Shown piece after piece: positions 398-21,368 of a DNA stretch of 21,368 nt. The notes beneath the pieces were generated by a model that was not told where the DNA came from, did not search any database, and saw only the letters and a program-made list of their open reading frames with translations. The stretch is taken from the IMG/VR virus record IMGVR_UViG_3300005353_000006; one strand, 5' to 3'. This stretch comes from a virus. How positions within the stretch are numbered: the first letter of the stretch is position 1; each line of letters begins with the position of its first letter. The position numbers and the translations under genes are program-made.

Positions 398-734
398 GCC
401 GCGCAACACCCGGGCGTGGCGCAGGCTGCGCAAGCAGGTGCTGCTGCGCGACGGGTGGCGGTGCCGGTGGTGCGGCGGCCTGGCCGACACCGCCGACCAC
501 GTGGTGGCGCTGGCCGAGGGCGGCGCCCCGTTCGATCCGTCCAACCTGGTCGCGGCCTGCAGATCGTGCAACGCGCGGCGCGGCGCGCAGCTCGTGAACG
601 CACGCGTTTTTTACAACGGCGTGCCTCCGCCAGGCCGCAATCTTGGAATGGCCGGGAACACACCGCGCGGCGCCCGATCGCGCCGGATCCGAACGCGGGG
701 CGTGGTGCCCGGCGCGATCGACGCGGATGGCTGA
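390..734 (+). CDS. HNH endonuclease (terminase-associated position)
   Basis: Motifs CRWCG...DHVVALAEGG...NLVAACRSCN. Stop overlaps the TerL start (ATGGCTGA). The 3' third (about 598-665) has atypical codon usage and a T6 run. Confidence 0.88.
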   Translation: MPEPRNTRAWRRLRKQVLLRDGWRCRWCGGLADTADHVVALAEGGAPFDPSNLVAACRSCNARRGAQLVNARVFYNGVPPPGRNLGMAGNTPRGARSRRIRTRGVVPGAIDADG

Positions 735-2178
735 GGCGGCACCCGGCCCGGCGCACGGATCGCTGGTGTTCAAGGGCGCCCAGCGGCCGCTGCGGCTGAT
801 CGAACTGCCGCCGTGGACGGGCTGGCGCCACACCTCGGAGGCCAAGCGGGCCGAGCGGTTCCTGGAGACCTACCTGGTGGTGCCGACGGGCCACGGCGCG
901 GCCGGGCCGTTCCGGATAGCGGGCTTCCAGCGCGAGCTGCTGCGCGAGATCTACGACCACCTGGCCACGTTCGCCTCGCTGCCCGCCGCGAACGGGAAGA
1001 CCACGTTCCTGGCGGCGCTGGCGCTGGAGCGGATCGCCCGCGGCGACGACTACGTGGAGGTGGACGTGATCGCCACCAAGCAGGAACAGGCCGGGTTCCT
1101 GGTGGAGGCCGCGATGCGGATGGTGGAGTCCTCGCCGGTGCTGGTCGATCGGTGCCGGTGGCACAGCCGCGAGCAGATCCTGGAGTACCGGCCGACCGGA
1201 TCCAAGCTGCAGGCGCACCCGGCCAAGCTGTCCGCGATCCAGGGCCTGAACTTCTCGCTGGCGATCATCGATGAGATCGGCTTCGCCCACGATGAGACGG
1301 TGGAGTCGCTGATCGCCCGGCTGGGCAAGCGGCCCGACGCGCGGCTGGTCGGGATCGGCACGCCCGGGTTCCAGGCGAACATCCTGCAGCGGCTGCGCGG
1401 CGCGCACCTGGACGGCGAGCTGCCCGCCGGTGTCCGCTACCTGGAGTGGGCAGCCGATCCCGGCTCGGCATCGGACGACCGACGGGCGTGGCGCAAGGCT
1501 AACCCGGCGCTGCGGGCCGGGTTCCTGACACCGGCCGCGCTGGCCGTCCAGCAGGGCCTCCTGAGCGATCGCGAGTTCCGCACCTACCACCTCGGGCTGT
1601 GGGTGGACGAGGCGGCAGCGTGGCTGCCGGAGGGCGCCTGGCAGGCGTGCGCGATGCAGCCGCCGCCGCCGGACGGCGGCGAGGTGGTGCTGGCGGTGGA
1701 AGGCACGTTCCGGCGCTCGGCGGCGGTCGCCGGGGCGACGATGGACGGCGCGATCTTCCACGGCTGGTGGGCGGAGGTGGCGACCGACCGCGACCTGCAC
1801 GAGCAGCTGGCCAGGGCGCTGGAGCGGTGGGACGTGCGGGCGATCGTGCACAACCGCCGGATCCGGTCGCGGCTGTTCGCCGAGCTGCGCGACGAGGGCG
1901 CGCCGGTGGTGCCGTGGGACGGGTCGGCCGACTCGGAGACCACCTCGGCCAACGAGTTCTACCGGGCGATCGTGGGCGGCGAGCTGGCGCACGATCACGC
2001 GCCGGTGGTGGCCGAGCAGGTCGCCAACCTGCGCGCCCGGTTCGGCGTGGACGGGTCGCTGCGGCTGGCCAGGCCGGACGACCCGGCCCGGTTCGGCGAC
2101 GCGGCGCTGGCAGCTCGCGCGGCCTGGTGGGTGGCGATGGCCGAGGCGCAGCAGGGCGGCGCCCCGACGATCTACTAG
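727..2178 (+). CDS. terL: Terminase large subunit (Terminase_1/HK97-like)
   Basis: Walker A PAANGKTTF, Walker B LAIIDEIGF, and a C-terminal nuclease-type region. ATG 727 chosen over the upstream 643 start because of the ATGGCTGA coupling with HNH and poorer GC3 upstream. Confidence 0.92.
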   Translation: MAEAAPGPAHGSLVFKGAQRPLRLIELPPWTGWRHTSEAKRAERFLETYLVVPTGHGAAGPFRIAGFQRELLREIYDHLATFASLPAANGKTTFLAALALERIARGDDYVEVDVIATKQEQAGFLVEAAMRMVESSPVLVDRCRWHSREQILEYRPTGSKLQAHPAKLSAIQGLNFSLAIIDEIGFAHDETVESLIARLGKRPDARLVGIGTPGFQANILQRLRGAHLDGELPAGVRYLEWAADPGSASDDRRAWRKANPALRAGFLTPAALAVQQGLLSDREFRTYHLGLWVDEAAAWLPEGAWQACAMQPPPPDGGEVVLAVEGTFRRSAAVAGATMDGAIFHGWWAEVATDRDLHEQLARALERWDVRAIVHNRRIRSRLFAELRDEGAPVVPWDGSADSETTSANEFYRAIVGGELAHDHAPVVAEQVANLRARFGVDGSLRLARPDDPARFGDAALAARAAWWVAMAEAQQGGAPTIY

Positions 2179-2290
2179 GCTGGCGGCAGGGGGCGGCGAG
2201 ACACGGTACGGCGCCCGTTCCGGCCGGACGATCATCGAGGCGCCACGCTGGCCTGCGAACCGTGCTCCGGCCGCCGCCCCCCAGGACGAC

Positions 2291-2318
2291 CAACGGGCCG
2301 CCCGAGGGCGACCCGTTG
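2291..2318. terminator. GC-rich hairpin between convergent terL and the minus-strand gene (putative bidirectional terminator T_A)
   Basis: CAACGGG(c)CGCCC-ga-GGGCG(a)CCCGTTG. Preceded by ccaggacga, the same 9-mer that precedes hairpin T_B at 3301-3309. Confidence 0.5.
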
Positions 2319-2364
2319 ACCATGGCGTGAAGGCTGCGAGCACAGCAGCCCGGGAGACCGGAGC

Positions 2365-3252
2365 CTAGCGCCCGGCCTCCTCGGCCAGCACCTTGGCGAC
2401 CGTCGGGTGGGTGCACCCGGCGAGCACCGCGATCGCGCGGTGCGACAGCCCGGCGGCGGCCGCGTCCACGATCGCCTGGCGCCAGGCGCGATCGGCCGTC
2501 ACCTTGGCGGCGGCGACCGCCACCAGCGTGGCGCCGATCGCGTCCTGCCGCTCGGCGCGGTCGGCGGCGGCGGCCTGGCCCGCGGTCTCGGCGACCTGCG
2601 CCAGCTCGGGCGCGGCGGCCGCGACCTCGGCCAGCGTGGCGGCCTCGTTGGCCTCCACCTGGGCGACCAGCTCAGGGTCGATCTCGCGCAGGTTCTCGCG
2701 GGTCGGGGCGGCCTGCAGCTTGCCCATGGTGACCTCCTCGGTGACGGGCTGGGCCTTGGCAAGGATCTTGCCGTAGCGGGTGCGGGCCTTGGCCAGCTTG
2801 GCCAGCGTCTCGGCGTGGCGCCGCTCGGCCCAGGCGATCGTCTCGGCGTAGTCCTCGGCGCGATCCGGGTACTGCTCGGTGTACGCGCCGTACACCTTGC
2901 GGGTGCTGGCCAGCTGCTCGTTGGCGGCCTGCACCCCGCGGCCGTCCTCGGCCACGTACGCCACCGCGATCTCGGCGGCCTCGGCCTCGGTCAGGATCAC
3001 AAAGCCACGCTTGAGCTGGCGGGTGGTGGTCGCGAAGGGCATGTGGGCGGCCGCGAACTTGGGCGGGTAGGCGACGCCGTAGCCGCTCATGCTGCCGTCG
3101 GTGCCGATGATCTCGCGGCCGACCCGGTAGGTGCCGGGCACGTCCTTGGCCTGGTGCAGGCCGCGCGCCTCGCGGGCGGCGGCGATCACGGCGGCGGCGG
3201 CGCCGCGGACGTGGGCCTTGCGGCCGGTGGTGGTGTTCGTGTCGGTGTTCAT
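2365..3252 (-). CDS. Orphan 295-aa protein with C-terminal HTH-like motif (cassette A); candidate DNA-binding regulator
   Basis: Minus-strand ORF with high GC3. ATG at 3252 lies 7 nt downstream of a -10 hexamer. C-terminus AIVDAAAAGLSHRAIAVLAGCTHPTVAKVL fits a resolvase/sigma-r4-style HTH pattern. The N-terminal domain is not recognised. Confidence 0.8.
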   Translation of the reverse strand: MNTDTNTTTGRKAHVRGAAAAVIAAAREARGLHQAKDVPGTYRVGREIIGTDGSMSGYGVAYPPKFAAAHMPFATTTRQLKRGFVILTEAEAAEIAVAYVAEDGRGVQAANEQLASTRKVYGAYTEQYPDRAEDYAETIAWAERRHAETLAKLAKARTRYGKILAKAQPVTEEVTMGKLQAAPTRENLREIDPELVAQVEANEAATLAEVAAAAPELAQVAETAGQAAAADRAERQDAIGATLVAVAAAKVTADRAWRQAIVDAAAAGLSHRAIAVLAGCTHPTVAKVLAEEAGR

Positions 3253-3259
3253 GGAAACA

Positions 3260-3288
3260 AGCTTACCATGGATCCTGGGGGATGGCAA
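3260..3288 (-). promoter_or_regulatory. Putative promoter P_A driving a leaderless transcript of cassette A
   Basis: Minus strand reads TTGCCA-17 nt-(TGG)TAAGCT-7 nt-ATG. -35 at 3283-3288, -10 at 3260-3265, with an extended -10 TGn. Confidence 0.6.
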
Positions 3289-3299
3289 GCGACTTTCCA
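3283..3299. promoter_or_regulatory. 17-bp imperfect palindrome O1, TGGCAAG-CGA-CTTTCCA, overlapping the -35 of P_A (putative operator)
   Basis: Half-sites TGGCAAG and TGGAAAG. An identical copy lies at 3658-3674 and a one-mismatch copy at 19405-19421. Confidence 0.6.
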
Positions 3300-3309
3300 C
3301 CCAGGACGA

Positions 3310-3337
3310 GAACGGGCGCCCCGTGGGGCGCCCGTTC
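3310..3337 (-). terminator. Perfect GC-rich hairpin T_B downstream of cassette B, abutting P_A
   Basis: GAACGGGCGCCC(c-gt-g)GGGCGCCCGTTC, with 12-13 bp arms. Preceded on the + strand by ccaggacga, as for T_A. Confidence 0.6.
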
Positions 3338-3360
3338 GATCGGGTGGGTGGCGGCCGGGC

Positions 3361-3627
3361 CTAGCGGCCGCCGCGCAGCTGGCGGGCGGTGACCTCCCCA
3401 GCGCGCTCCAGGGCGCACCGGAGATCGTCGCGGTCAGCGTTCCCGTTGGCGATGTCCTCCACCAGGCCGGTGAGGCCGACGCCGTTCAGCTGCTCGGAGT
3501 AGTGGCTGGCGAGCTGGTAGGCGTCGTCGCCCAGGTTGGCCACGATCCAGCCGGGGCGCTTGCCCGCGTCCAGCAGGTCGATCGCGGTGCGGAGGTGCAG
3601 GTTGGTGGCGCGCGTGTCGGTGTTCAT
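3361..3627 (-). CDS. Orphan 88-aa protein (cassette B) with N-terminal HTH-like pattern
   Basis: Minus-strand ORF. ATG at 3627 lies 7 nt downstream of a -10 hexamer. Shares its first five codons (MNTDT) with cassette A. AIDLLDAGKRPGWIVANLGDDAYQLASHY fits a helix-turn-helix pattern. Confidence 0.75.
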   Translation of the reverse strand: MNTDTRATNLHLRTAIDLLDAGKRPGWIVANLGDDAYQLASHYSEQLNGVGLTGLVEDIANGNADRDDLRCALERAGEVTARQLRGGR

Positions 3628-3634
3628 GGAAAGA

Positions 3635-3663
3635 ACCTTACCACAGGATCCGGGGGATGGCAA
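3635..3663 (-). promoter_or_regulatory. Putative promoter P_B driving a leaderless transcript of cassette B
   Basis: Minus strand reads TTGCCA-17 nt-(TGG)TAAGGT-7 nt-ATG. Confidence 0.6.
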
Positions 3664-3674
3664 GCGACTTTCCA
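3658..3674. promoter_or_regulatory. 17-bp palindrome O2 (identical to O1) overlapping the -35 of P_B
   Basis: TGGCAAGCGACTTTCCA read directly. Confidence 0.6.
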
Positions 3675-3683
3675 CGCCGGCCG

Positions 3684-3698
3684 GTTAGGCAGCCTAAC
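3684..3698. promoter_or_regulatory. Perfect 7-1-7 palindrome GTTAGGC-A-GCCTAAC in the divergent region between cassette B and portal
   Basis: Read directly. AT-enriched for this genome. Overlaps the -35 position of the putative portal promoter. Confidence 0.5.
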
Positions 3699-3714
3699 GA
3701 TCGTGCGCTAGAGT
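3685..3714 (+). promoter_or_regulatory. Putative rightward promoter for portal and downstream genes (leaderless geometry)
   Basis: -10 TAGAGT at 3709-3714, followed by exactly 7 nt and then the portal GTG at 3722. The -35 (TTAGGC/TAGGCA) is weak. Confidence 0.4.
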
Positions 3715-3721
3715 CGGCCCC

Positions 3722-4936
3722 GTGGGTCTGCTGGATCGGCTGCTGGGACGATCCGCACCGCCGCCGCCGTCGGTGCTCGGCCTGCCGTCCGGGTTCGATC
3801 CCGAGCTGGCCGGGCTGTTCGCCGGGTGGGCGTCGCCGCAGCTCGCCGAGCGCGTCGGCACCGCCGTGCGCTGCCTGCAGCTGGTCTGCCAGCAGGTGGC
3901 CGCCATGCCGATCCGGTTCCGCGGCGACTCGCCGGTGCCGCTGTGGGTGGCCAACCCTGACCCGGTGTGGTTCCCGAACGGCGCCGCTGATGCGACGTTC
4001 GCCACGATGGCGTCGATCTACGGCTGGGGCGACGCGTTCCTGCTGGTGACCGACCGCTACGTGACCGGCTTCCCGAGGGCCTACACCGTGCTGGATCCGC
4101 AGCAGGTGACCGTCGGCACCGACCCGGACGGCCGCGGCCGCACGTACCGGGTGAAGCAGTACGACCTGCGCAGCGAGGACGTGCTGCAGATCTCGCGCGA
4201 TCCGAACGGGCAGCTGCGCGGCACCTCGGCGCTGCAGGGCTACTCGGCCAACGTCCAGGGCGCCTACTTCGCCGAGAAGTTCGCGACCGACTTCTACCAG
4301 CAGGGCGGCGTGCCGTGGGCGGTGCTGCAGTCCAGCCGCCGCCTGGAGGCCGACCAGGCCGCCGCGCTGCAGGCGCAGTGGACAGCTCGGGTCGGCCTGC
4401 GCGGCGGCGCCCCGGCGGTGCTGCCGCCCGATGTCACGTTCCAGCAGTTCAGCTTCGCGCCGCGCGACCTGCTGCTGCTGGAGACCCGCGAGTGGGACGC
4501 CAAGCAGATCGCCGCCGCCTACGGCGTGCCCGCGTTCATGCTGAACATGGAGCAGGCGGGCGGCCTGAACTACTCCAACCCGGAGATGCTGTTCGACACC
4601 TGGTGGCGCACCGAGCTGTACCCGACCGCGCGCCGGGTGGAGGCCGCGCTGTCCACGTGGCTGCCGCGCGGCAGCTGGGTGGAGTTCGATCCGTCGATCC
4701 TGCTGCGGCCCGATCTGAAGACCGCCAGCGAGGTGTGGCTGGCGCTGCTCGCGGCCAACGTGGTGACGGTGGACGAGTGCCGCGCGGCGGTGCTGGATCT
4801 GCCGCCGCTGGCCGACGGCGAGGCGCTGGAGCTGATCGACGAGCCGCCCGGCGCGAACGCCAGCGGCCCGACCCCGCCCGACCTGCCCGCGCCGCCACCG
4901 GCGGCCGCACCCCTGGAGGTGGTGGCAAGTGCCTGA
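3722..4936 (+). CDS. Portal protein (HK97 family)
   Basis: 404 aa in the position after terL. Typical portal core QGGVPWAVLQS...FQQFSFAPRDLLLLETREWDAKQIAAAYGVPAFML...YSNPE. Confidence 0.9.
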   Translation: MGLLDRLLGRSAPPPPSVLGLPSGFDPELAGLFAGWASPQLAERVGTAVRCLQLVCQQVAAMPIRFRGDSPVPLWVANPDPVWFPNGAADATFATMASIYGWGDAFLLVTDRYVTGFPRAYTVLDPQQVTVGTDPDGRGRTYRVKQYDLRSEDVLQISRDPNGQLRGTSALQGYSANVQGAYFAEKFATDFYQQGGVPWAVLQSSRRLEADQAAALQAQWTARVGLRGGAPAVLPPDVTFQQFSFAPRDLLLLETREWDAKQIAAAYGVPAFMLNMEQAGGLNYSNPEMLFDTWWRTELYPTARRVEAALSTWLPRGSWVEFDPSILLRPDLKTASEVWLALLAANVVTVDECRAAVLDLPPLADGEALELIDEPPGANASGPTPPDLPAPPPAAAPLEVVASA

Positions 4937-5540
4937 CCAGCCGATCCTGACCCGCGTGTTCCAGGTGGAGGACGTGCACGTCCGGGCCGCGATCGACGGC
5001 GGCCCGGTCGGCCGGATCCTGGATCTGCGGGTGGTGCCGTACAACGTGAGCGCCCAGGTGCGCGACGCGCCCGACGCCGAGCCGTACCTGGAGCAGTTCG
5101 CGCCGGGCGCGTTCGCTCGCGCGGTGCGGGCGCCCGATCGGGTGCAGTTCCGCTACCACCACGGCCAGGGCCTGGCCGACTGGATCGGCCGGGGCGTCCA
5201 GTTCGCGGAGGGCGACGGCGGCCTGGACGGCTCGGTGCGGGTGCTGCCGGGCGTGTTCGGCGACCAGGCCCTGACGCTGGTGGACGAGGGCATGCTGCGG
5301 GGCGTGTCGGTCGGCTTCCAGGATCTCGCCCGCCGCAACCGGCGCGCTGGAGACGGCGCGATCATCCGCGAGCGGTGCCACCTGGTGGAGGTGTCGCTGA
5401 CGCCGGAACCGGCCTACGCGGGCGCCGCCGTCACCGGCCGCCGATCGCGCACGCCCGATCCCGACTGGATCGACCTGGCCGTCCGGCCGGACACCGGCGA
5501 GCTGGACGCCCGGCTGCGCGCGGTCGGGATCGACGTGTAG
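4929..5540 (+). CDS. Prohead maturation protease (HK97/S78 family)
   Basis: GTG overlaps the portal stop (GTGCCTGA). Motifs FAPGAF...RYHHG...GLDGSVRV...GDQALTLVDEGMLRGVSVGF. Confidence 0.88.
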   Translation: MPDQPILTRVFQVEDVHVRAAIDGGPVGRILDLRVVPYNVSAQVRDAPDAEPYLEQFAPGAFARAVRAPDRVQFRYHHGQGLADWIGRGVQFAEGDGGLDGSVRVLPGVFGDQALTLVDEGMLRGVSVGFQDLARRNRRAGDGAIIRERCHLVEVSLTPEPAYAGAAVTGRRSRTPDPDWIDLAVRPDTGELDARLRAVGIDV

Positions 5541-5601: not shown

Positions 5602-6279
5602 GTGATCACACCTGCACAGACCGACGTGGCCCTGAACCTGGAGGCGGCGGCGCTGCTGGTGGAGGCGGAGCCGGGCCTGAACGTGCTGGACGCGCTCCAC
5701 CGCACGTCCCAGCCGATCCAGCCGCAGGCCGCCCGCGACCAGCTGGTGGCCGACACCTACTACGCGCTGCTGGCGTACCTGCCGCCGCACGTGGAGTGGA
5801 TCGGCGCCTGGAGTGACGCCGAGACCGCCGACCGAGTGGCGACCAAGCTACGGCAGCTGGCGCGCACGATCCGCAAGGGCGGGTTCGCCCACGTGGACGG
5901 CGCGGTGCCGCCACTAGCAGACCCGTCGGACGTTGCGCTGACCAGCCGCGCCGCGACCGGCAACCGGCGCGGCGGGGTGCCGGGCAAGCGCAACTTCACG
6001 CCCGAGGGCAAGCTGCGGCTGCAGCGCGCGACCGCCCAGCGATGGCTCGGCGTCCAGCAGCGCAAGCCGCACCCGGACGCGCACAAGCTGACCGAGCTGG
6101 AGCTGCGGATCGCCGAGATCGACCGGCAGCTGGCCGAGCTGGAGGGCGAGGAGGAGGAGGGCGAGCGCGAGCTGGTGGCCGCGGGCAACGGCCACCGCGA
6201 CAGCGAGGCGCTGGCCCTGATCGAACAGTCCCAGCGGTTCCCGCTGGAGCGCCGCCCCACCACGCTGTCGGGCCTGTAG
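5602..6279 (+). CDS. Orphan 225-aa protein inserted between protease and capsid genes (sense-strand moron candidate)
   Basis: GTG 5602 lies 5 nt after GAGGAGG. High GC3. C-terminal coiled-coil/acidic stretch LELRIAEIDRQLAELEGEEEEGE. No family recognised. Confidence 0.8.
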   Translation: MITPAQTDVALNLEAAALLVEAEPGLNVLDALHRTSQPIQPQAARDQLVADTYYALLAYLPPHVEWIGAWSDAETADRVATKLRQLARTIRKGGFAHVDGAVPPLADPSDVALTSRAATGNRRGGVPGKRNFTPEGKLRLQRATAQRWLGVQQRKPHPDAHKLTELELRIAEIDRQLAELEGEEEEGERELVAAGNGHRDSEALALIEQSQRFPLERRPTTLSGL

Positions 6280-6307
6280 CATCCCCGCCAGCGCGAAGGG
6301 CGCACCG

Positions 6308-6333
6308 TCGGCCGTCCAGTACCCTGGGCGGCC
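6308..6333 (+). terminator. Candidate hairpin terminator after the extra gene
   Basis: CGGCCGTCCA-gtaccc-TGGGCGGCCG, 10 bp with one G-U pair. Starts 29 nt after the stop and is followed by tcggccgttgt. Confidence 0.35.
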
Positions 6334-6453
6334 GTCGGCCGTTGTAGGCTGACCAGGCCGCGACGGGCGGGCCGCGCCACCACCTCCCCGGCCGCACCTC
6401 GCAGGGCGGCACGGGCCGCGCCGCTGGGCCACCGTCGCGGCGCCTCTCCTCGG

Positions 6454-6462
6454 TGCTAGCCT
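6454..6462 (+). promoter_or_regulatory. Candidate extended -10 element, TGC-TAGCCT, upstream of the capsid gene
   Basis: Second copy of ctcggtgctag (6449-6459), about 100 nt upstream of ATG 6565. Confidence 0.25.
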
Positions 6463-6564
6463 TGGCGGCGACGGCACCCCGCACCGCGCCACCCGGCCAC
6501 TAGGGCCGCCCCACGCATCGCGGCACCCCGGATCACTGACCCGATCCCTGGAGGGGCCGTCGCC

Positions 6565-7803
6565 ATGCCGAACGTCGTACTGCAGCGTCTCGTGACCGAG
6601 CGCGAGCAGCTGCTGGACACCAACGATCAGATCCTGCAGCGCGCCGAGGAGGAGGAGCGCGACCCGTCGGAGGCCGAGCGCGAGCTGCTGCGCCGCAACC
6701 GCGAGCGCGCCACCCAGCTGGAGCCGCAGGTGGAGGAGCTGCTGGAGCTGGAGGAGACGCGCGCCCGCAGCGGCGAGCAGCGCGCCCGGATCACCCGCGC
6801 GATCGGCGCTCCGGCCCGCGAGGGCGGCGAGGCGCCCGCCGAGCGCGGCGACGCGCCCGGCGAGATCGTCTACCGGACGTTCGCGCAGTACGCCCGAGAC
6901 GCGCTGATCACCCGCGTGGAGCAGATCGGGAACATCGTCGGCCCCGAGCTGCGCCAGCGCGCCGCCGAGCGGCTGCAGCGCGCCGCCCAGGTGCACACCC
7001 TGACCAGCGACGTGCCGGGCCTGATCCCCGACCAGCACCTGGCGCAGATCTTCGAGGTGATCAACACCGCGCGGCCGGTGGTCGCCAGCTCGCGGCAGGT
7101 CGGCCTCACCTCGGGCAAGCTGACGTGGCCGTCCATCACCGCCCGCCCGACCGTCGCCAAGCAGGTCACGGAGAAGACCAACCCGGCCTACTCCAAGATG
7201 GCCGTGATCATGCGCGAGGTGGTGGCCGACACCTACCTGGGCGCGGGCAACCTGAGCTGGCAGACGATCCAGTGGTCTAGCCCGGACGCGCTGACGCTGT
7301 TCTTCGATCTGATGGCCGAGGCGTACGCCGAGCAGACCGAGAGCGCCGCCTGCACCGTGGTGGACACCGCCGCCGCCGCGGGCGGCACCGTCGCGTCGGA
7401 CGACCTGGCGGGCTGGATGGCCGCGATCGCGGCCGCCGCCGGGCAGGTGCGCGCCGCGGGTGGCCGCGCCAACGCGATCTACCTGGACGCGATCACCGGC
7501 TACAGCCTGCTGGGCCTGGTGACGGCGCAAAACCCGGTGTTCCTGACCGCTGGCCCCGGCTCGCTGGGCGACGCGTCCGGCAACCTGGGCGGGCTGCGGT
7601 TCATTGTCTCGGACGGGTTCGCCGCGTCCACCGCGATCGTGGGCGACAGCTCCAAGCTGCTGTGCGCCGAGACGCCCGGCGCGCCGGTGGAGATGCGCGC
7701 CGTGGAGCCGTCGATCGGCGGCCTGGAGGTGGGCGTGATCGGTGCGTTCGCGGCCGTCGCGGTGCTGCCCGGCGCGTTCGTCCAGCTGACCCCGCCGGTG
7801 TGA
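6565..7803 (+). CDS. Major capsid protein, HK97 fold, with N-terminal coiled-coil delta (scaffolding) domain
   Basis: ATG follows GGAGGGG. The N-terminal ~100 aa are a charged coiled coil, followed by a typical HK97 MCP core (DQHLAQIFEVINTARPV...KLTWP...). Confidence 0.92.
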   Translation: MPNVVLQRLVTEREQLLDTNDQILQRAEEEERDPSEAERELLRRNRERATQLEPQVEELLELEETRARSGEQRARITRAIGAPAREGGEAPAERGDAPGEIVYRTFAQYARDALITRVEQIGNIVGPELRQRAAERLQRAAQVHTLTSDVPGLIPDQHLAQIFEVINTARPVVASSRQVGLTSGKLTWPSITARPTVAKQVTEKTNPAYSKMAVIMREVVADTYLGAGNLSWQTIQWSSPDALTLFFDLMAEAYAEQTESAACTVVDTAAAAGGTVASDDLAGWMAAIAAAAGQVRAAGGRANAIYLDAITGYSLLGLVTAQNPVFLTAGPGSLGDASGNLGGLRFIVSDGFAASTAIVGDSSKLLCAETPGAPVEMRAVEPSIGGLEVGVIGAFAAVAVLPGAFVQLTPPV

Positions 7804-7805
7804 CC

Positions 7806-7988
7806 ATGACCCCGCACCGTGACCGGCTGCTGGCCGGAGACTACGACCCTGGCAAGTCCGCTACCACCGACCTGGATCAGATGACCAAGGCCGAGCTGCT
7901 GGAGCACGCCCAGCGGCTCGGCGTGGCCGTCGATCCGAGCGCCACCAAGGCCGAGGTGCGGGCCGCGATCGACGCGGCCGGGAGCTGA
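7806..7988 (+). CDS. Small 60-aa protein with Rho-N/SAP-like helix-extended-helix motif
   Basis: ATG lies 2 nt after the MCP stop. MTKAELLEHAQRLGVAVDPSATKAEVRAAIDAA. Confidence 0.75.
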   Translation: MTPHRDRLLAGDYDPGKSATTDLDQMTKAELLEHAQRLGVAVDPSATKAEVRAAIDAAGS

Positions 7989-10104: not shown

Positions 10105-11871
10105 GTGGCGGGTGGCGCCAGCGTCGTAGTCCGGTTCCTGGCCAACACCACCGACCTGGCCAAGGGCGCCAAGGACGTGGAGGCGCACGGCAGCCGCATG
10201 GGATCGGCCTTCAAGTCGATGGGCAAGGCCGCCGCGCTGGGCGCCGGAGCGGCCGGGATCGGCGCCGTCGTCGCCACCCTGAAGGTCGGCATTGACGAGT
10301 ACCAGGAAGCCTCCCAGGTGGCCGCGCAGACCAACGCCGTGATCAAGTCCACCGGCCAGGTGGCGGGCGTCTCGGCCGACCACGTGGGCGACCTCGCCGA
10401 GTCGCTGATGCGCAAGTCCGGGATCGACGACGAGGCGATCGCCTCGGGCGAGAACCTGCTGCTGCAGTTCACCAAGATCCGCAACGAGGCGGGCGCGGGC
10501 AACGACGTGTTCGATCGCACCACCAAGGCCATGACCGACATGGCCGCGCGCATGGGCACCGACCCGGCCGCCGCCGCCAAGGTGCTGGGCAAGGCCCTGA
10601 ACGATCCCGCCAAGGGCCTGACCAAGCTGGCCAAGCTGGGCGTGACGTTCACCGACGCCCAGCAGAAGCAGGTGAAGGCCATGACCGAGGCGGGCGACGT
10701 GGCGGGCGCGCAGAAGATCATCCTCGGCGAGGTGGAGAAGCGATACGGCGGCGCCGCCGAGGCCGCTGGTAAGACGCTTCCCGGGATGATCAACATTGCC
10801 AAGCAGTCGTTCAACAACCTGGCGGGCGAGCTGGTCGCCAAGATGATCCCGGCGCTGCTGGCGGTGGTCTCGTTCATCCGCGAACACTGGCCCGAGATCT
10901 CGCTGGTGATCGCCAAGGTGACCGCGACGGTCAAGCCGCTGCTGGTCGCGCTGGCGCAGCTGTTCCTGGAGATCGTGGACGTGATCGTCTCCGCCTGGCC
11001 GTCGATCCGGCCGGTGATCCTGGCGATCCTCCCGGCCCTGCAGGCCGCCGTCGCGGTGATCACCAACGTGGTGAAGCTGGTCACCGCGCTGCTGCGCGGC
11101 GACTGGAGCGCCGCCTGGACGGCGGCCAAGGCCATCGTGCTGAACATCGTCAAGCTGATCACCGCGCTGCTGCGGTTCGAAGTCACGATCTGGAAGACCG
11201 TCCTGAGCGCCGCCTGGACAGCGATCAAGGCCGCCACCAGCGCCGCCTGGAACGCGATCAAGGCGGCCGTCTCCAGCGCCGTCACCGCGATCGGCGGCGC
11301 GCTCGGTCAGATCCCCGCCAAGATCTCCAGCCTGGTGCACAGCGTCGCGACGCAGGCGGGCAAGCTGGGCAGCGCGATCAAGGACGGGATCGTGGACGGC
11401 GCCAAGGACGCGCTGCGCGCCGTCGGCGACGCGATCGGTGCGATCCCGGGCAAGATCTCCAGCCTGGTGCACGCCGTTGGCCGCGAGGCGGGCCGCGTCG
11501 CCAGCGCGATCAAGGATCCGATCAACGCGGTGATCCGGGCCTGGAACGGGATCGTCTTTCACGTGCCCAAGTTCACCGTCGGCGGCGGCTCGCACCTGGG
11601 CGTCGATATCCCCAAGTTCACGTTCGGCGGCCAGTCGATCGACTTCCCGAACCTGCCGACGCTGGCCCGCGGCGGGGTGCTGACCCGGCCCACGCTGTTC
11701 GTGGGCGGCGAGGCCGGGCGCGAGATCGTGGCGCCCGAGTCGCTGCTGCGGCAGCTGCTGCGCGAGGAGCACGGCGCCACCTACCAGCTGTTCCTGCAGC
11801 CGCGCACCGCCGACGCCCAGGACGTGGCGTACGCGTTCCGGCGGCTGGAGCTGCTGAGGACGGGCCGCTAG
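10105..11871 (+). CDS. Tape measure protein
   Basis: 588 aa, Ala/Gly/Lys-rich and helical with hydrophobic central segments. Lies directly before the Dit-like gene. Confidence 0.9.
   Translation: MAGGASVVVRFLANTTDLAKGAKDVEAHGSRMGSAFKSMGKAAALGAGAAGIGAVVATLKVGIDEYQEASQVAAQTNAVIKSTGQVAGVSADHVGDLAESLMRKSGIDDEAIASGENLLLQFTKIRNEAGAGNDVFDRTTKAMTDMAARMGTDPAAAAKVLGKALNDPAKGLTKLAKLGVTFTDAQQKQVKAMTEAGDVAGAQKIILGEVEKRYGGAAEAAGKTLPGMINIAKQSFNNLAGELVAKMIPALLAVVSFIREHWPEISLVIAKVTATVKPLLVALAQLFLEIVDVIVSAWPSIRPVILAILPALQAAVAVITNVVKLVTALLRGDWSAAWTAAKAIVLNIVKLITALLRFEVTIWKTVLSAAWTAIKAATSAAWNAIKAAVSSAVTAIGGALGQIPAKISSLVHSVATQAGKLGSAIKDGIVDGAKDALRAVGDAIGAIPGKISSLVHAVGREAGRVASAIKDPINAVIRAWNGIVFHVPKFTVGGGSHLGVDIPKFTFGGQSIDFPNLPTLARGGVLTRPTLFVGGEAGREIVAPESLLRQLLREEHGATYQLFLQPRTADAQDVAYAFRRLELLRTGR
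11320..11517 (+). repeat. In-frame 132-nt (44-aa) tandem duplication inside the tape measure gene
   Basis: Exact 21-mer aagatctccagcctggtgcac at 11320 and 11452. agcgcgatcaagga occurs at about 11371 and 11504. Confidence 0.85.
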
Positions 11872-15350: not shown

Positions 15351-15408
15351 TGCGCAGCGGTCGCGCAGACCGCCGCAGGCTGTCGCACCTACGCGCAGGT
15401 TGGCCCGG

Positions 15409-15437
15409 TTGGCGGGCCGATCGTGCGGCGCTAGGTT
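15409..15437 (+). promoter_or_regulatory. Putative xis/int promoter
   Basis: TTGGCG-17 nt-TAGGTT, then 7 nt to ATG 15445. Those 7 nt also contain GGAGG, so a conventional leader is equally possible. Confidence 0.4.
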
Positions 15438-15444
15438 CGGAGGC

Positions 15445-15669
15445 ATGGCTGTGAGCGAGCACGAGCACCTGACCGAGACGGGCGACGAGCTGATCTCGTT
15501 CGCCGAGGCCGGGCGCCGGATCCCCAAGCGGAACGGCGCGCCGCGATCCGAGCGCACGATGCAGGACTGGGGCGCCCGCGGGCTGCTGCCCGTGGTCGCG
15601 GTCTCGGCCCACGTGCGGTGGGTGAACTGGTCGGAGTACCTGCGGCGTCTCCACCACAGCACCCGCTAG
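15445..15669 (+). CDS. xis: Excisionase-type (MerR-like) HTH DNA-binding protein
   Basis: 74 aa. LISFAEAGRRIP...TMQDWGARGLLPVV...VRWVNWSEYLRRL. Lies immediately upstream of the integrase. Confidence 0.7.
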   Translation: MAVSEHEHLTETGDELISFAEAGRRIPKRNGAPRSERTMQDWGARGLLPVVAVSAHVRWVNWSEYLRRLHHSTR

Positions 15670-15670
15670 G

Positions 15671-15687
15671 TGGAAACTGTGTTACCA
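15671..15687. promoter_or_regulatory. 17-bp palindrome TGGAAAC-TGT-GTTACCA at the xis/int junction (same TGGnAAn-N3-nTTnCCA skeleton as O1/O2)
   Basis: Read directly, with one mismatch between arms. AT-rich for this genome. Its last A is the A of the alternative int start, ATG 15687. Confidence 0.45.
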
Positions 15688-15734
15688 TGGGGCTGCTGGG
15701 CGATGATCGCCCGCACCGACACGAGGAGCCGACG

Positions 15735-16931
15735 GTGACCGACACCACCGCCACCCGCACGTTCGCCCAGCACGTTGACCAGCCCGGCGGCCCCGGCACG
15801 CAGTACCGGGTGCGCCTCCGGTTCCCGGGCATGGCCACGATCTACACCGAGTGGCACAGCGACCTGGACGTGGCCAACGCCCGCGCCTCGGAGCTGCGCG
15901 CGATCCGCAAGCGCGGCGAAGGCCCCAGCGACGGCGCCCGGTTCGTGACCCTCGGCGACATGGCCCGCGAGGTGCTGGCCGCCAAGGGTATCGCCGGGCT
16001 GACCGAGGGCGGCCTGGAGTGGTGGGCGCGGATCCTGCGGCCGCTGATCGACGGGCCGCACGCGGCCACGCCGGTGCACCTGCTGCCCGTCGCCAAGATC
16101 CGCACCGCCCACCTGGAGCGCGCCGCCAAGCATCCCAAGGCCGCCAACGACGAGCGGATCGGCCTGGAGGCCGTGCTGCGCGCCGCGCAGGCCGACGGCG
16201 CCAAGGTGCCGGGCGCGCTGCTGGAGCTGCCGACGCCGGTGTGGGAGACCCGCGAGCGCGTCACGATCCACCGCGACGGCGAGCTGGCCGCGTTCGCGCT
16301 CGGCGCGCCCGACCGCTACGCGCGGCTGGTGCTGCTCCAGGGCATGGTCGGCTGTCGCATCGGCGAGCTGCTGCAGCTGCGCCGCGACTGGATCGACCTG
16401 GCCGAGGGCACCATCACGATCCCGCCCGCCGCGCACAAGTCGGGCAAGCGGATCGGCGCCAAGATCATCCCGCTGCTGCCCGAGGAGATCGCGCTGCTGA
16501 CCGAGCAGCTGGCCACCCTGCGCGTGGCGGGCGCCACGCCCACCTCGCACCTGCCCGGCACCCCGGCCGAGTCGGAGCTGGTGTGGCCGATGCCGGACGG
16601 CTCGGCCTGGCCGATGATCCACGGCCGCGTGGCGCACAGCTACTTCAATCGCCACGTCTGGCAGCCGACGCTGGCCGCCGCCGGGCGCGACGATCTCACC
16701 TCGCACGATCTGCGCGCCACCGCCGTCACGATCATGCGCGACCGCGGGATCTCCGAGGAGACCTGCCAGCTGCGGGTCGGCCACGCCGACGCCAAGCTGA
16801 TCCGCTCGGTCTACGACAAGGGCAGCCGCCTGGCGCGGGCGCAGCGCGAGCTGGTGGCGATCGCGGCGGCAGAGGTGGCGACCGTCACCGACACGATTCC
16901 GGCCGCCACCGCCGAGGAGGCTACCCGATGA
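15735..16931 (+). CDS. int: Tyrosine integrase
   Basis: Catalytic pattern: R in CRIGELLQLR, HDLRATAV (H-x-x-R), VGHAD, and Y in IRSVYDKG. GTG 15735 lies 6 nt after GAGGAG. Alternative start is ATG 15687. Confidence 0.9.
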   Translation: MTDTTATRTFAQHVDQPGGPGTQYRVRLRFPGMATIYTEWHSDLDVANARASELRAIRKRGEGPSDGARFVTLGDMAREVLAAKGIAGLTEGGLEWWARILRPLIDGPHAATPVHLLPVAKIRTAHLERAAKHPKAANDERIGLEAVLRAAQADGAKVPGALLELPTPVWETRERVTIHRDGELAAFALGAPDRYARLVLLQGMVGCRIGELLQLRRDWIDLAEGTITIPPAAHKSGKRIGAKIIPLLPEEIALLTEQLATLRVAGATPTSHLPGTPAESELVWPMPDGSAWPMIHGRVAHSYFNRHVWQPTLAAAGRDDLTSHDLRATAVTIMRDRGISEETCQLRVGHADAKLIRSVYDKGSRLARAQRELVAIAAAEVATVTDTIPAATAEEATR

Positions 16932-17128: not shown

Positions 17129-17137
17129 GCGCGCCCG

Positions 17138-17156
17138 GTGTCAATTCTGTGTCAAC
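17138..17156 (+). repeat. 19-bp direct repeat, copy 1: GTGTCAATTCTGTGTCAAC (two GTGTCA boxes 11 bp apart)
   Basis: 18 of 19 nt match 17345-17363. Confidence 0.9.
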
Positions 17157-17170
17157 CCTGACCGCGGCCA

Positions 17171-17207
17171 ACGGCCCGATCCCTGCAGCCATGCGGGATC
17201 GGGCCGT
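17171..17207. repeat. Perfect 13-bp inverted repeat with an 11-nt loop
   Basis: ACGGCCCGATCCC-tgcagccatgc-GGGATCGGGCCGT. Confidence 0.9.
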
Positions 17208-17209
17208 TC

Positions 17210-17236
17210 CCGTTCCGGTGTCTGACACCGAAACGG
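17210..17236. repeat. 13-1-13 palindrome with one mismatch, centred on GGTGTC-T-GACACC
   Basis: CCGTTCCGGTGTC-t-GACACCGAAACGG. Confidence 0.85.
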
Positions 17237-17315
17237 CCCCGCGCGTGTCTGCGGCCGTCGGCGGGATTCCGCGTAACCATGCGGGTTCGCGTGGTCTAGG
17301 CCGCGTGACCCTGCG

Positions 17316-17654
17316 GTGCCCTGCGGGTGTCTGCGCGGGCCTGCGTGTCAGTTCTGTGTCAACGCGGCGGCCCTGGTGACCCGCGCCGACCGCACCCCGC
17401 CCGCGCCCGCCGGGCGGCTCAGCACCGCCCAGGTCGGCGCCGTGCTGACCGCCCTGGCCCGCGCCGCCAGCACCGCCGACGACCGCGCCGCGGTGGTCGC
17501 GCTGCGTGACTGCCAGCTGTGGCTGAACACCACCACCGCCCTGGCCCGCGCCGCCGAGCGCCGCCAGCTGGTGCGCTGCCCGAGCTGCCGCGAACCGCTG
17601 CCCGAGCTGGGCGAGCTTCACGACCTGCTGCACCGGCTGGCGGTGGAGCTGTGA
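17316..17654 (+). CDS. Hypothetical early protein with possible split zinc-ribbon cysteines
   Basis: Good GC3 from about 17376 onward. CQFC near the N-terminus and CPSC near the C-terminus. Start uncertain (GTG 17316 or GTG 17376). The 5' end overlaps the second 19-bp repeat. Confidence 0.6.
   Translation: MPCGCLRGPACQFCVNAAALVTRADRTPPAPAGRLSTAQVGAVLTALARAASTADDRAAVVALRDCQLWLNTTTALARAAERRQLVRCPSCREPLPELGELHDLLHRLAVEL
17345..17363 (+). repeat. 19-bp direct repeat, copy 2: GTGTCAGTTCTGTGTCAAC
   Basis: See copy 1. The two copies are 207 bp apart. Confidence 0.9.
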
Positions 17655-17922: not shown

Positions 17923-18128
17923 CCGCGCCACAGCTGACGCTGGAGGAGCAGATCGCCACCGAGGTGGCGCTGCGCGACTACCTGGCCAGCGAGGCCGCCT
18001 ACTACCGGCGCCGCGCCGAGACCGGGCACGACCGCCAGCACGCGATCCAGCTGGAGGACTGGGTGACCCAGCTGGACGCCGTGATCTCCAACCGTCGGAT
18101 GGCGCGGCGTGCCGACGCTGTGCCGTGA
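17919..18128 (+). CDS. Hypothetical 69-aa protein
   Basis: GTGA overlap. High GC3. Confidence 0.65.
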   Translation: MTAPQLTLEEQIATEVALRDYLASEAAYYRRRAETGHDRQHAIQLEDWVTQLDAVISNRRMARRADAVP

Positions 18129-19050
18129 GTGCGGCCGGGTGGTGGCGGCGCAGCTGGTGCCCGGCGCGTGGCTGTGCGAGACCTGCAACCGAGGAGGACG
18201 ACCCGTGAGCACTCCCGCTGAGCACGGCGGCGCCGCCCCGCCGCCCGAGAAGCCCCCTGAAACGCCCGCTGAGGCGATCCCGCCGTCCGAGGCCGAGGGT
18301 ACGGCCGAGGTGCTGGACGCGCCGGAGACGCCCGCTACGACGCCCGCACGTGGAAGCGGGCCTTCCACGCGGACGATCGATCCGCCCCGTGCCCTGCCTG
18401 CTCGCCGCGGGGTTCAGCTGGTCACCCGGCCGGAGCCGTCCTGGCGCGAGCTGGGCTGGTGGCTGTCGCTGGCCGAGTCGGGCCAGGAGACCGCCCAGGC
18501 CCGCGGCGGCCGCGCCGCGCTGCGCCTCTACTACGTGACCCAGCTGGGCCTGCCGCTGTGGGCGGCCAGCCACCTGTCGGTGATCAACGGCCGCCTGGTG
18601 GTGTCCTCGGAGCTGCTGCGCGCGATCGCGGCCCGCGCCGGGTACGACGTGGCGCCCGAGGACTGGACAGACGACAGCTGCACCGCCTACGTGGTGCGCC
18701 GCGCCGACGGCGAGGTGATCGGCCGGTACACGTTCACGATCGCCGACGCCCAGCGGGCCGAGCTGATCCGGCCCCGGTCGGCCTGGGTGACGCACCCGCG
18801 CCGGATGCTGTGGGCGCGAGCGGCCGCGTTCGCGCTGCGCGACGCGATCCCGGAGGTGGTGCTGGGCTTCCAGACCACCGACGAGCAGGCCGAGATCTAC
18901 GGCCGCGAGGCGGAGCCGATCGGCGTGGACGCGCCGTACGAGTACGGCCCCGCCGAGCGAGACGAGGACATCCCGTTCCGGTGGCGCGACCCGTGGCTGA
19001 CCGGGGAGGTGAACGTCGATGGCGCGGCCGACCACCTGCGACTGCGGTAG
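18109..19050 (+). CDS. RecT-family single-strand annealing protein with N-terminal CxxC-x14-CxxC zinc ribbon and Pro-rich linker
   Basis: The C-terminal part aligns by eye with RecT (YVTQLGLPL...; AWVTHPRRMLWARAAAFALRDAIP versus E. coli RecT PWVTHWEEMAKKTAIRRLFKYLP). Alternative start is GTG 18205, after GAGGAGGAC. Confidence 0.8.
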   Translation: MPTLCRECGRVVAAQLVPGAWLCETCNRGGRPVSTPAEHGGAAPPPEKPPETPAEAIPPSEAEGTAEVLDAPETPATTPARGSGPSTRTIDPPRALPARRGVQLVTRPEPSWRELGWWLSLAESGQETAQARGGRAALRLYYVTQLGLPLWAASHLSVINGRLVVSSELLRAIAARAGYDVAPEDWTDDSCTAYVVRRADGEVIGRYTFTIADAQRAELIRPRSAWVTHPRRMLWARAAAFALRDAIPEVVLGFQTTDEQAEIYGREAEPIGVDAPYEYGPAERDEDIPFRWRDPWLTGEVNVDGAADHLRLR

Positions 19051-19403: not shown

Positions 19404-19931
19404 GTGGCAAGCGACCTTCCACCGAGGCCCGCCTGGCGGCGCCGCTGTGCCCTGGCCGCCGTCTCGCCCGGCGCCAAGGCCGTCGTGCTGGCGCTGGACA
19501 CCTACATGGACGCGGCCTGCCGCGCGCAGGTCTCGCGCGGCAGGCTGGCGGCCGATCTCGGCGTGACGGCGCGCACCGCGCTGCGGTGGATTCACGAGCT
19601 GGAGGCGGCCGAGCTGCTGGGCGTCGATCGCACGATCGGGCACCACGTGAACCGCTACCAGGGCCGTCCCTACGGTGACACCCGCGACACCGTGACGGTG
19701 ACACGGGCGTCACGGTCTACGGTGACAGCTGAGACCGCCGACGGTGACAGCTCACGACCACTGACGGTGACACGGGTGTCACCCGAACTAGAAGGTCAGA
19801 AGGACAACGGCGCGGGCGCGCGCGGCGACGGTCAAGCCCGCGGCGAGGGCTACGGCAGCGCCTCGGGCGCGCAGCTCGCGCGGGAGGCGGCGGCGGCAGC
19901 CCGGCGGAGGATCCTGGAGGGCGGCGCGTGA
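19404..19931 (+). CDS. Winged-helix DNA-binding protein, candidate replication initiator (lambda O-like arrangement)
   Basis: KAVVLALDTYMDAACRAQVSRGRLAADLGVTARTALRWIHELEAAELLGV is a typical wHTH pattern. The iteron array lies inside its own coding sequence. Confidence 0.75.
   Translation: MASDLPPRPAWRRRCALAAVSPGAKAVVLALDTYMDAACRAQVSRGRLAADLGVTARTALRWIHELEAAELLGVDRTIGHHVNRYQGRPYGDTRDTVTVTRASRSTVTAETADGDSSRPLTVTRVSPELEGQKDNGAGARGDGQARGEGYGSASGAQLAREAAAAARRRILEGGA
19405..19421. promoter_or_regulatory. 17-bp palindrome O3, TGGCAAG-CGA-CCTTCCA, over the start codon of the initiator-like gene
   Basis: 16 of 17 nt identical to O1/O2. No -10 lies at the position used in P_A/P_B. Confidence 0.55.
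19672..19772 (+). repeat. Five direct iterons ACGGTGACA at spacings of 23, 24, 22 and 23 bp (candidate origin iterons)
   Basis: Copies at 19672, 19695, 19719, 19741 and 19764. Copies 2 and 5 extend to GGTGACACGGGYGTCAC. Confidence 0.85.
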
Positions 19932-21260: not shown

Positions 21261-21368
21261 GTGACCGACCAGGCCGAGGCGCCGGACACCGAGCGCACCG
21301 ATGACGCTGCCTTCAGCGACGACGCCACCGAGAAGCTGGGCGACGCCACCGAGCGCGAGACCAACGAG
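21261..21368 (+). CDS. Hyper-acidic small protein, 5' part (continues at nt 1 across the circular junction)
   Basis: GTG 21261 lies 3 nt after GGAGGAG (21251-21257). In frame with nt 1-177 through the terminal repeat. Confidence 0.7.
   Translation, partial: MTDQAEAPDTERTDDAAFSDDATEKLGDATERETNE
21309..21368. repeat. Terminal direct repeat, copy 2
   Basis: Identical to nt 1-60. Confidence 0.97.

Follow-up and report, generated by a model that had tools for sequence, protein, structure and literature searches.

A predicted leaderless expression module repeated between the terminase and portal genes of a small, temperate, metagenomic phage lineage

Composite repeats in which a stem-loop terminator and a promoter lie next to each other, termed promoter-early stem-loops (PeSLs), have been described in T4-type phages (Arbiol et al. 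2010, PMC2839356; Comeau et al. 2014, PMC4122927). They flank non-essential ORFans and bound the insertions, deletions, and replacements that distinguish closely related phages in hyperplastic regions, for which homologous recombination between the repeats has been inferred (PMC2839356, PMC4122927). Here we describe a locus to which PeSLs are the closest described system, and of which it is an analogue rather than a member. It lies in a 21,368-nt viral sequence, IMG/VR record IMGVR_UViG_3300005353_000006 (hereafter the window, meaning this whole stretch of DNA), in the gap between the genes for the large terminase (terL) and the portal. Two leftward genes, geneA and geneB, occupy the gap, and each begins within one of two copies of a 63-nt block that comprises a promoter, a start codon, and the first codons. 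From a comparison with related loci, we consider it very likely that the gap is a hotspot of recombining cassettes equipped with a portable leaderless module. That the 63-nt block is itself this portable expression module, and that together with a GC-rich hairpin terminator it brackets exchangeable open reading frames (ORFs) in the terL-portal gap, is in our view probable.

The likeness to PeSLs has two parts: a stem-loop terminator, here a predicted one, has a promoter directly downstream, and insertions, deletions, and replacements are bounded by the repeats, as in the loss of a unit in one relative (L009) and the exchange of geneB for an unrelated ORF, F, in another (L058). The settings differ, in that PeSLs belong to lytic myoviruses of 170-250 kb and are numerous and dispersed in hyperplastic regions, whereas the present phage is a non-T4, temperate, siphovirus-like element of 21 kb and ~73% GC with at most two full units, all at one locus. 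The promoter here is also leaderless in its layout and made of two operator-like palindromes. Since the repeat reaches into the first 5-11 codons, exchange would, unlike in PeSLs, create N-terminal fusions. Mini-circles excised by recombination between repeats are a further trait associated with PeSLs.

Three other systems invite comparison. The morons of lambdoid phages (Juhala et al. 2000; Hendrix et al. 2000) are reportedly genes with their own promoter and terminator that lie between two late genes, are independently transcribed, and are variably present. The units described here resemble them in carrying their own (predicted) promoter and terminator and in being inserted between two genes, terL and portal, that are adjacent in relatives; they differ in that the flanks are repeated and common to different cargo, that a constant helix-turn-helix (HTH) module is always present, and that the operator motif of the promoter recurs across the phage genome. 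The stoperators of Cluster A mycobacteriophages (L5/Bxb1/TipsytheTRex), at which a bound repressor blocks elongation, are asymmetric 13-14-bp sites bound by a monomer, present in 20-30 copies per genome with an orientation bias (PMC9283540, PMC6550527). Common to both is an actinophage-type element with a short motif at the promoter -35 and at scattered sites inside and between late genes, but here the motifs are 17-bp palindromes, number 10, and come two per promoter, and the gene for the candidate binding protein lies in the terL-portal gap. Finally, the PRM-cI arrangement of phage lambda combines a leftward regulator gene, a leaderless mRNA, and a promoter overlapped by dyad operators (PMC10491246), features that the present locus is predicted to share; there is no sequence or fold relationship, the genome location is another, and the duplicated promoter and swappable partner ORFs are particular to the present locus. 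A recombination hotspot of this type is already known in principle from other phages. What is new here is a leaderless module that includes coding sequence and a genome-wide set of palindromes linked to the cassette HTH protein.

Repeated blocks and exchangeable units in the terL-portal gap

A sequence-only reading of the window had proposed that a block of 63 nt, containing a palindrome, a promoter, and the first five codons, is present twice with about 90% identity and that the coding sequences diverge completely after it. These proposals stand. The two copies (A and B, Table 1) match at 55 of 63 positions without gaps and at about 58 of 64 (~91%) with one indel. They are direct repeats 375 nt apart, within a repeat family of 81 nt with 83% ungapped identity, and on the minus strand their first 24 nt (GTGGAAAGTCGCTTGCCATCCCCC) and last 22 nt (TTTCCATGAACACCGACACG...) are identical. 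An 18-mer from the core of the block occurs three times in the window (0.01 expected), the third time at 19405-19422. Read on the minus strand, the block begins with GTGGAAAGTCGC and continues with the -35 element TTGCCA, a 17-nt spacer, an extended -10 of TGG followed by TAAGCT (copy A) or TAAGGT (copy B), 7 nt, and the codons ATG AAC ACC GAC ACG. After codon 5 the proteins read MNTDT-NTTTGRKAHV... (geneA) and MNTDT-RATNLHLRT... (geneB). The block is dyad-symmetric, and a single strand of it folds at -21.3 kcal/mol (z = -3.3).

The -10 element fits only the TANNNT form, which is typical of Actinobacteria. In every variant this -10 element and the TGG upstream of it are placed 6-7 nt before the ATG, leaving no room for a Shine-Dalgarno sequence. 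We infer that the layout is that of a leaderless promoter, in which transcription would begin at the A of the ATG and yield a leaderless mRNA.

At the other end of each unit lies a hairpin. The flank CCAGGACGA (2281-2289 and 3301-3309), pointed out previously as part of two related terminators, is indeed followed by AACGG...CCGTT hairpins at 2292-2317 and 3310-3337. Over a 66-nt window, the minus-strand RNA of the inner terminator folds at -42.4 kcal/mol (z = -4.3) and that of the outer terminator at -39.5 kcal/mol (z -2.9). The plus-strand RNA of the outer terminator reaches -30.7 kcal/mol, because a G-U pair of the minus strand becomes a C-A mismatch on the plus strand, and the greater minus-strand stability fits a role in ending the geneA transcript. 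The outer terminator is kept in all cassette-bearing relatives (at least eight) with compensatory stem changes, and nine terminator variants all fold at -29 to -37 kcal/mol despite changes within the stem; the inner terminator was found in two-unit relatives only. On the minus strand, the promoter block (3300-3238) begins within 9 nt downstream of the inner hairpin (3310-3337), so that the two form a composite terminator-promoter unit. A partial terminator arm that had been suggested at 2210-2220 does not hold up, since matches with at most two mismatches are at chance level (9 found, 11.8 expected). An Rfam search of 2100-3800 gave nothing significant. Between the terL stop and the outer terminator, the window (2179-2280) and L009 (~830-925) contain an extra ~100 nt that L010, L012, L014, and L017 do not have, the outer terminator abutting the terL stop in those four; a long-range stem over 2179-2290 is no better than in shuffled sequence (z = -0.8).

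A portal search of IMG/VR yielded 36 loci with 51-100% identity, mostly on contigs of ~21 kb, and more loci came from DNA-pattern scans of IMG/VR and Joint Genome Institute (JGI) metagenomes and from contigs with genes homologous to geneA. The blocks extend beyond this genome to many related contigs, and ~30 related contigs of ~21 kb have 0, 1, or 2 units in the terL-portal gap; more than two promoter units were not found in the data. Depending on the locus, the terL stop and the portal start lie between 14 nt and ~1540 nt apart, and the content of the gap differs as well; the window is at the upper end (~1540 nt). Cassette-free loci (L015, L016, L020, L023, L027, and L032) have gaps of 14-126 nt.

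The content of the units can be described with five letters: A for the N-terminal domain of geneA, B for the geneB protein, D for a further sequence found joined to the HTH, E for a 106-aa (amino-acid) protein with a signal-peptide-like hydrophobic N-terminus, and F for an 84-aa ORFan, a singleton in L058. Among one-unit loci, A-HTH is followed by a translationally coupled E in L005, L006, L008, L009, and L059, and by an E with the same hydrophobic N-terminus in L045; D-HTH is accompanied by E in L011 and L063 and stands without it in L013; A is joined to other HTH subtypes in L014 and L053; in L012, the stop codon of B overlaps the start codon of a 100-aa linker+HTH protein; and B plus D-HTH form a single operon in L017, L060, and L065. 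Two-unit loci have B, then A (the window, L002/L022, and L010), B, then A plus E (L047, L048, and L064), or F, then A (L058).

Across these loci the four sequences A, B, D, and F, which have no mutual sequence similarity, are all joined to the same promoter and an M(N/T/H)TDT start, the unrelated sequence beginning between codon 6 and codon 12 of the ORF downstream of the promoter. Two comparisons locate individual breakpoints. L009 is 95-100% identical to the window over terL, geneA, and portal and is without ~3280-3640, which is exactly one 375-nt repeat period; its single promoter is copy B in the upstream flank and copy A in the body, which places the exchange inside the identical 24-mer. 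In L058, F takes the place of geneB between the same promoter and inner terminator. On the 5' side L058 and the window are identical from the portal promoter to about codon 11, and on the 3' side identity resumes just past the stop codon and covers the inner terminator and the second promoter. The 3' flank GCTC(C/G)GGTCTCCCGGGCTGCTG..., which leads into the terminator, is the same whether A or E is the last gene and whether E is present or absent, and the inner junction of terminator, promoter, and leader repeats the outer elements. Identical flanks around different ORFs, together with unit numbers that vary among relatives, support the earlier suggestion of cassette duplication or exchange. 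By sequence comparison, the exchanged units are protein domains fused to the constant C-terminal HTH module as often as whole genes. Homologous recombination between the short repeats would create, delete, and swap units, possibly catalyzed by the RecT-like annealing protein that the phage encodes.

Palindromes and the cassette HTH protein

The promoter block can be resolved into two imperfect 17-bp palindromes of the form TGGNAA-N5-TTNCCA, whose centres are 31 bp, or about three helical turns, apart; one spans the -35 and the other the -10 together with the A of the ATG. Allowing at most one mismatch, the window has 10 occurrences of this pattern where 0.04 are expected, and six of the occurrences are outside the promoter copies (Table 1). 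Relatives carry a site at the geneA-internal position equivalent to 2757, and syntenic sites are found in relatives with the type-1 HTH 'GLSHRAIA..AGCTHPTVAKVL', including the distant L045, where sites lie at the starts of the rep-like and integrase genes. A scan of 14 loci without this cassette gave a single site, with one mismatch, in L023; the other 13 had none. Loci with a type-2 HTH ('GLTNRAISRASGLSHPTVAKIL') have an N4-spaced palindrome instead, again two per promoter. The predicted recognition helix carries an invariant HPTVAK motif. This co-occurrence suggests that the invariant HTH module would bind the palindromes as a dimer and autoregulate both promoters. The protein may also act at the roughly six further sites, including those at the integrase and rep-like gene starts, in which case the locus would be a leftward, prophage-expressed regulatory module of the phage and not passive cargo.

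The geneA protein consists of a disordered leader (residues 1-13), the N-terminal domain A, a variable linker, a long helix, and the C-terminal HTH. In an AlphaFold2 (AF2) model with a mean predicted local distance difference test (pLDDT) score of 80, residues 1-13 are disordered and the HTH lies at the end of a helix of ~70 residues. Homologues are rare: a set of 5.8e9 proteins contained only 14 for geneA and only 4 for geneB. When a profile of geneA and its homologues was run against 1.8e9 representatives, wide relatives emerged only for the C-terminal helix+HTH. The GC content at third codon positions (GC3) of geneA (0.95) and geneB (0.90) is the signature of real genes. A 100-aa linker+HTH gene (...ASIAAIARAAQVSRPTVYTWIRQ...) is also present on the plus strand in the terL-portal gap of L018 (5646-5948; portal 75% identical), and may be the same HTH module in the opposite orientation.

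A more far-reaching reading, which we regard as possible but doubtful, is that the terL-portal locus is a master regulatory (immunity) module. It would encode a dimeric repressor whose constant C-terminal HTH reads palindromes at its own promoter and at int, rep, and late-gene sites, the N-terminal 'sensor' domain and the small partner being exchanged in a plug-and-play manner because promoter, start codon, and first codons would make up a single portable leaderless module, prone to recombination and optimised for translation. Pointers to a lysogeny regulator are that these are the only leftward genes, that no other recognisable repressor is encoded, and that operator-like sites occur at the integrase and rep-like starts. 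Against this stands L073, a temperate relative with xis and integrase genes but no cassette; the cassette is therefore not the only lysogeny control of the family, which weakens the master-repressor reading. The same locus rules out the explanation that cassette-free relatives are non-temperate.

The strongest of the competing explanations, although we think it unlikely, is that the units are ordinary morons, that is, prophage-expressed cargo (serving, for example, superinfection exclusion or host modulation) with its own promoter and terminator, with repeats that reflect a common regulator and an HTH protein that does not control the phage. Such cargo would be expected to look much as the units do, given their own promoters and terminators, an orientation opposite to the late genes, presence or absence among relatives, the inclusion of ORFans and of a small protein with a signal-peptide-like N-terminus, and the existence of a temperate relative without the cassette (L073). 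The HTH module is, however, found in every variant that carries the cassette, with only the partners differing, and none of the cassette proteins matched a defence family. That the promoter palindromes recur elsewhere in the phage, the integrase and rep-like starts included, likewise argues for a role in phage regulation.

Shared first codons, remaining alternatives, and contrary observations

In the shared leader, 4-10 CA-rich, G-poor codons (MNTDT...) follow the ATG. Over their first 50 nt, the A, B, and D mRNAs have folding energies of -8.3, -7.3, and -4.9 kcal/mol, compared with -18.9 +/- 5.0 kcal/mol for random 50-nt windows of the genome, and these segments are among the weakest-folding ~1% of genome windows; G makes up 17-20% of them, whereas the genome average is 37%. 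Actinobacteria have many leaderless mRNAs (PMC5741613), and accessibility of the start codon is a main determinant of the translation of such mRNAs (PMC8459731), while CA-rich sequence downstream of the start codon raises expression from both leadered and leaderless mRNAs (PMC4611024). We infer that ATG-AAC-ACC-GAC-ACG-(AAC-ACC-ACC) is part of the expression module and that these codons would be kept for two reasons, as an unstructured 5' end for ribosome binding and as homology for recombination. The N-terminus of the integrase, TVTDTTAT (ACGGTGACCGACACCACCGCCACC, 15732-15755), matches the cassette leader at 17 of 24 positions, probably a low-complexity coincidence.

Alternatively, protein-level selection could keep the leader, with MNTDT acting as a functional peptide, for example as a degron, as a site of modification, or as a tag for interactions. 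The amino acids are conserved with some codon variation (MNTDT, MHTDT, MTTDT), the segment is disordered and exposed in the model, and a similar VDTATYTT is kept at a promoterless internal gene start, all of which would suit a peptide signal. We nevertheless consider this improbable, as the nucleotide sequence is mostly identical, third positions included, and a peptide signal would not require the extremely low RNA structure and the low G content.

We give still less credence to the idea that selection for coordinate regulation alone has kept the blocks similar, in which case they would be no recombination substrate and the ORF variation would stem from illegitimate events. The blocks do coincide with a functional-looking -35, -10, start codon, and palindromes, and the spacer between the palindromes is their least conserved part, but L009 loses exactly one repeat period and has a B/A chimera at the junction, both breakpoints of the F/B replacement fall at conserved flanks, and the synonymous positions of codons 2-5 are conserved across unrelated ORFs.

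An integron-like site-specific system, with the AACGG...CCGTT hairpins as attC-like sites for the phage tyrosine recombinase, is rejected as extremely improbable: arrays of exchangeable ORFs separated by hairpin-forming repeats, an encoded tyrosine recombinase, hairpin bases that loosely resemble inverse-core/core motifs (GGTCAAC...GTTGGTC), and a third related hairpin downstream of the integrase gene in the probable attP region are reminiscent of integrons, but the integrase is not of the IntI type (15.7 bits against a cutoff of 265 for the integron-integrase model TIGR02249), every cassette has its own promoter, the breakpoints lie in the promoter/leader and just past stop codons rather than in the hairpins, and the hairpins are ~40 nt long with no evident extrahelical-base architecture.

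In addition to L073, several observations weigh against the portable module that we favour and against the regulatory role proposed for its HTH protein. A scan with E. coli-type consensus sequences called no promoter or terminator at the locus. The hairpins have no U tract, and termination at such hairpins is a prediction from their sequence. The link between the HTH and the palindromes is correlative, resting on co-occurrence, and it is confounded by phylogeny because the cassette-free relatives are also the more distant ones; moreover, the palindromes at 2757, 7850, and 10767 are in coding sequence and could partly be kept by protein constraint. Searches of A, B, D, E, and F against Pfam, PHROGs, NCBIfam, and PADLOC returned only generic HTH matches and no defence family, and Foldseek found no match in the PDB at E<=0.001 for the AF2 models of A and B. 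The second operon gene of L017 lacks a separate promoter, yet its start, GTGGACACCGCCACGTACACCACC, agrees with the leader at 20 of the 24 positions. The leader thus need not always accompany leaderless initiation, and this internal copy points either to a remnant of a former arrangement with two promoters or to a function of the peptide. The evidence base is metagenomic sequence throughout.

Genome context and significance

The identity of the 60 nt at both ends of the window (bases 1-60 equal 21309-21368) indicates that it is a complete genome of 21,308 bp, circularly permuted or terminally redundant. It is a temperate, siphovirus-like element of ~21 kb with a GC content of 73%, and with an excisionase-like (xis-like) ORF and a tyrosine integrase in 21,308 bp it is an unusually small temperate tailed phage. 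Apart from geneA and geneB, all convincing genes are on the plus strand. In addition to the genes of Table 1, the window encodes an S78-type protease, a capsid protein, a tape measure, and tail genes, as well as an HNH endonuclease and a lysin-like protein. Its TerL is 57-99% identical to those of the related loci.

There was no match to cultured phages in DNA similarity, and the lineage is known from metagenomes only. The closest cultured relatives of the portal are from Mycobacterium and Microbacterium phages with at most 32% identity. Scanning genome collections with a portal profile gave only three contigs of metagenome-assembled genomes, and an integrase-based search for more complete relatives returned close relatives only. 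Rhizosphere-type samples underlie the IMG contigs 3300005545, 3300005354, and 3300025927. The lineage is probably actinobacterial.

Table 1. Positions of the cassette elements, operator-like palindromes, and selected genes in the window. Strand is given as + or -; a dot denotes a feature assigned to neither strand.
Feature	Position	Strand	Remarks
Outer terminator	2281..2323	-	CCAGGACGA flank 2281-2289 and hairpin AACGGGTCGCCC/GGGCGGCCCGTT; predicted to end geneA transcript
Inner terminator	3301..3337	-	CCAGGACGA flank and perfect 13-bp hairpin GAACGGGCGCCCC-ACG-GGGGCGCCCGTTC; predicted to end geneB transcript
Repeat copy A, geneA expression module	3238..3300	-	-35 TTGCCA 3283-3288; TGG 3266-3268; -10 TAAGCT 3260-3265; ATG 3250-3252
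Repeat copy B, geneB expression module	3613..3675	-	-35 TTGCCA 3658-3663; -10 TAAGGT 3635-3640; ATG 3625-3627
geneA, 295 aa	2365..3252	-	GC3 0.95; HTH matches phrog_5497 and HTH_23
geneB, 88 aa, helical-bundle ORFan	3361..3627	-	GC3 0.90; AF2 pLDDT 89
O(-10/+1), copy A	3252..3268	.	TGGAAACAAGCTTACCA, 0 mismatches; last base is A of ATG
O(-35), copy A	3283..3299	.	TGGCAAGCGACTTTCCA, 0 mismatches
O(-10/+1), copy B	3627..3643	.	From palindrome scan
O(-35), copy B	3658..3674	.	From palindrome scan
Operator-like palindrome inside geneA	2757..2773	.	TGGCAAGGATCTTGCCG; encodes conserved YGKILAK motif
Operator-like palindrome	4923..4939	.	Portal stop/protease start junction; syntenic in relatives
Operator-like palindrome	7850..7866	.	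Downstream of capsid gene
Operator-like palindrome	10767..10783	.	Inside tape-measure gene
Operator-like palindrome	15671..15687	.	Between xis-like stop (15669) and integrase ATG; last base is A of ATG
Operator-like palindrome, third 18-mer copy	19405..19421	.	HNH stop/rep-like start; equivalents in L011 and L045
Large terminase (terL)	643..2178	+	Weak TerL_ATPase and Terminase_6N matches; left boundary of hotspot
Portal promoter, divergent	3684..3721	+	15-bp palindrome GTTAGGCAGCCTAAC; -10 TAGAGT 3709-3714; 7 nt, then GTG at 3722
Portal	3722..4936	+	Phage_portal, E = 1.7e-46; right boundary of hotspot
Excisionase-like (xis-like) ORF	15400-15669		
Tyrosine integrase	15687-16931		
RecT-like single-strand annealing protein	18109..19050	+	phrog_561, E = 2e-18
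Rep-like winged-helix protein	19404-19931		

The portal promoter is kept in relatives, including cassette-free ones. A similar promoter precedes the lysin-like gene (20104-20140, plus strand), with a 15-bp palindrome (GTTCGGCTGCCGAAC), the -10 element TAGGAT, and a start codon 7 nt downstream. In both, the common 15-bp palindrome (GTTAGGCAGCCTAAC and GTTCGGCTGCCGAAC) is followed by AACGATCG..GCGCTAG, and the pair forms a second class of leaderless-looking promoter with its own putative operator.

Further features lie toward the right end of the window. Five or six iteron-like copies of ACGGTGACA(C/G), some in inverted pairs, occupy 19670-19783 in the 3' part of the rep-like ORF and mark a probable replication origin. 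A non-coding region at 17130-17365, directly after a small ORF downstream of the integrase gene, contains direct repeats GTGTCA(A/G)TTCTGTGTCAAC at 17138 and 17345 and several GTGTCTG motifs. It also holds a third hairpin (17170-17208, 14-bp stem) with the AACGG...CCGTT base common to both cassette terminators, and is likely an attP and integrase arm-site region combined with a terminator.

Relatives vary at other places as well. In a distant branch (L024, L025, L029, L030, L034-L036, and L038; portal 62-67% identical) the terminase gene is inverted with respect to the portal gene, and the two diverge from a common intergenic region. A second variable region, from the protease/scaffold genes to the capsid gene, contains different small ORFs in each relative, some of them HTH-like (L045, 6238-7192; L073, 6507-7222; L023, 3527-5337), and is a 286-nt gap in the window (6279-6565).

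If the cassette reading is correct, modular shuffling bounded by promoters and terminators is at work not only in the large lytic T4-like phages for which it was described but also in a temperate lineage with a very small genome. Because the genes would be leaderless, the portable regulatory module would extend into coding sequence, and recombination would yield N-terminal fusions in frame, with domains swapped on a DNA-binding module that stays constant. Should the locus be a master regulatory module, the hotspot would diversify lysogeny control and not merely cargo. The unit, with ~60 nt of promoter and leader and ~40 nt of terminator, would represent a compact natural 'expression cassette' and a testable part for high-GC hosts. 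Finally, a defined 17-bp motif together with a candidate binding protein offers an entry to the self-control of a 21-kb temperate phage that has no recognisable cI-type repressor.

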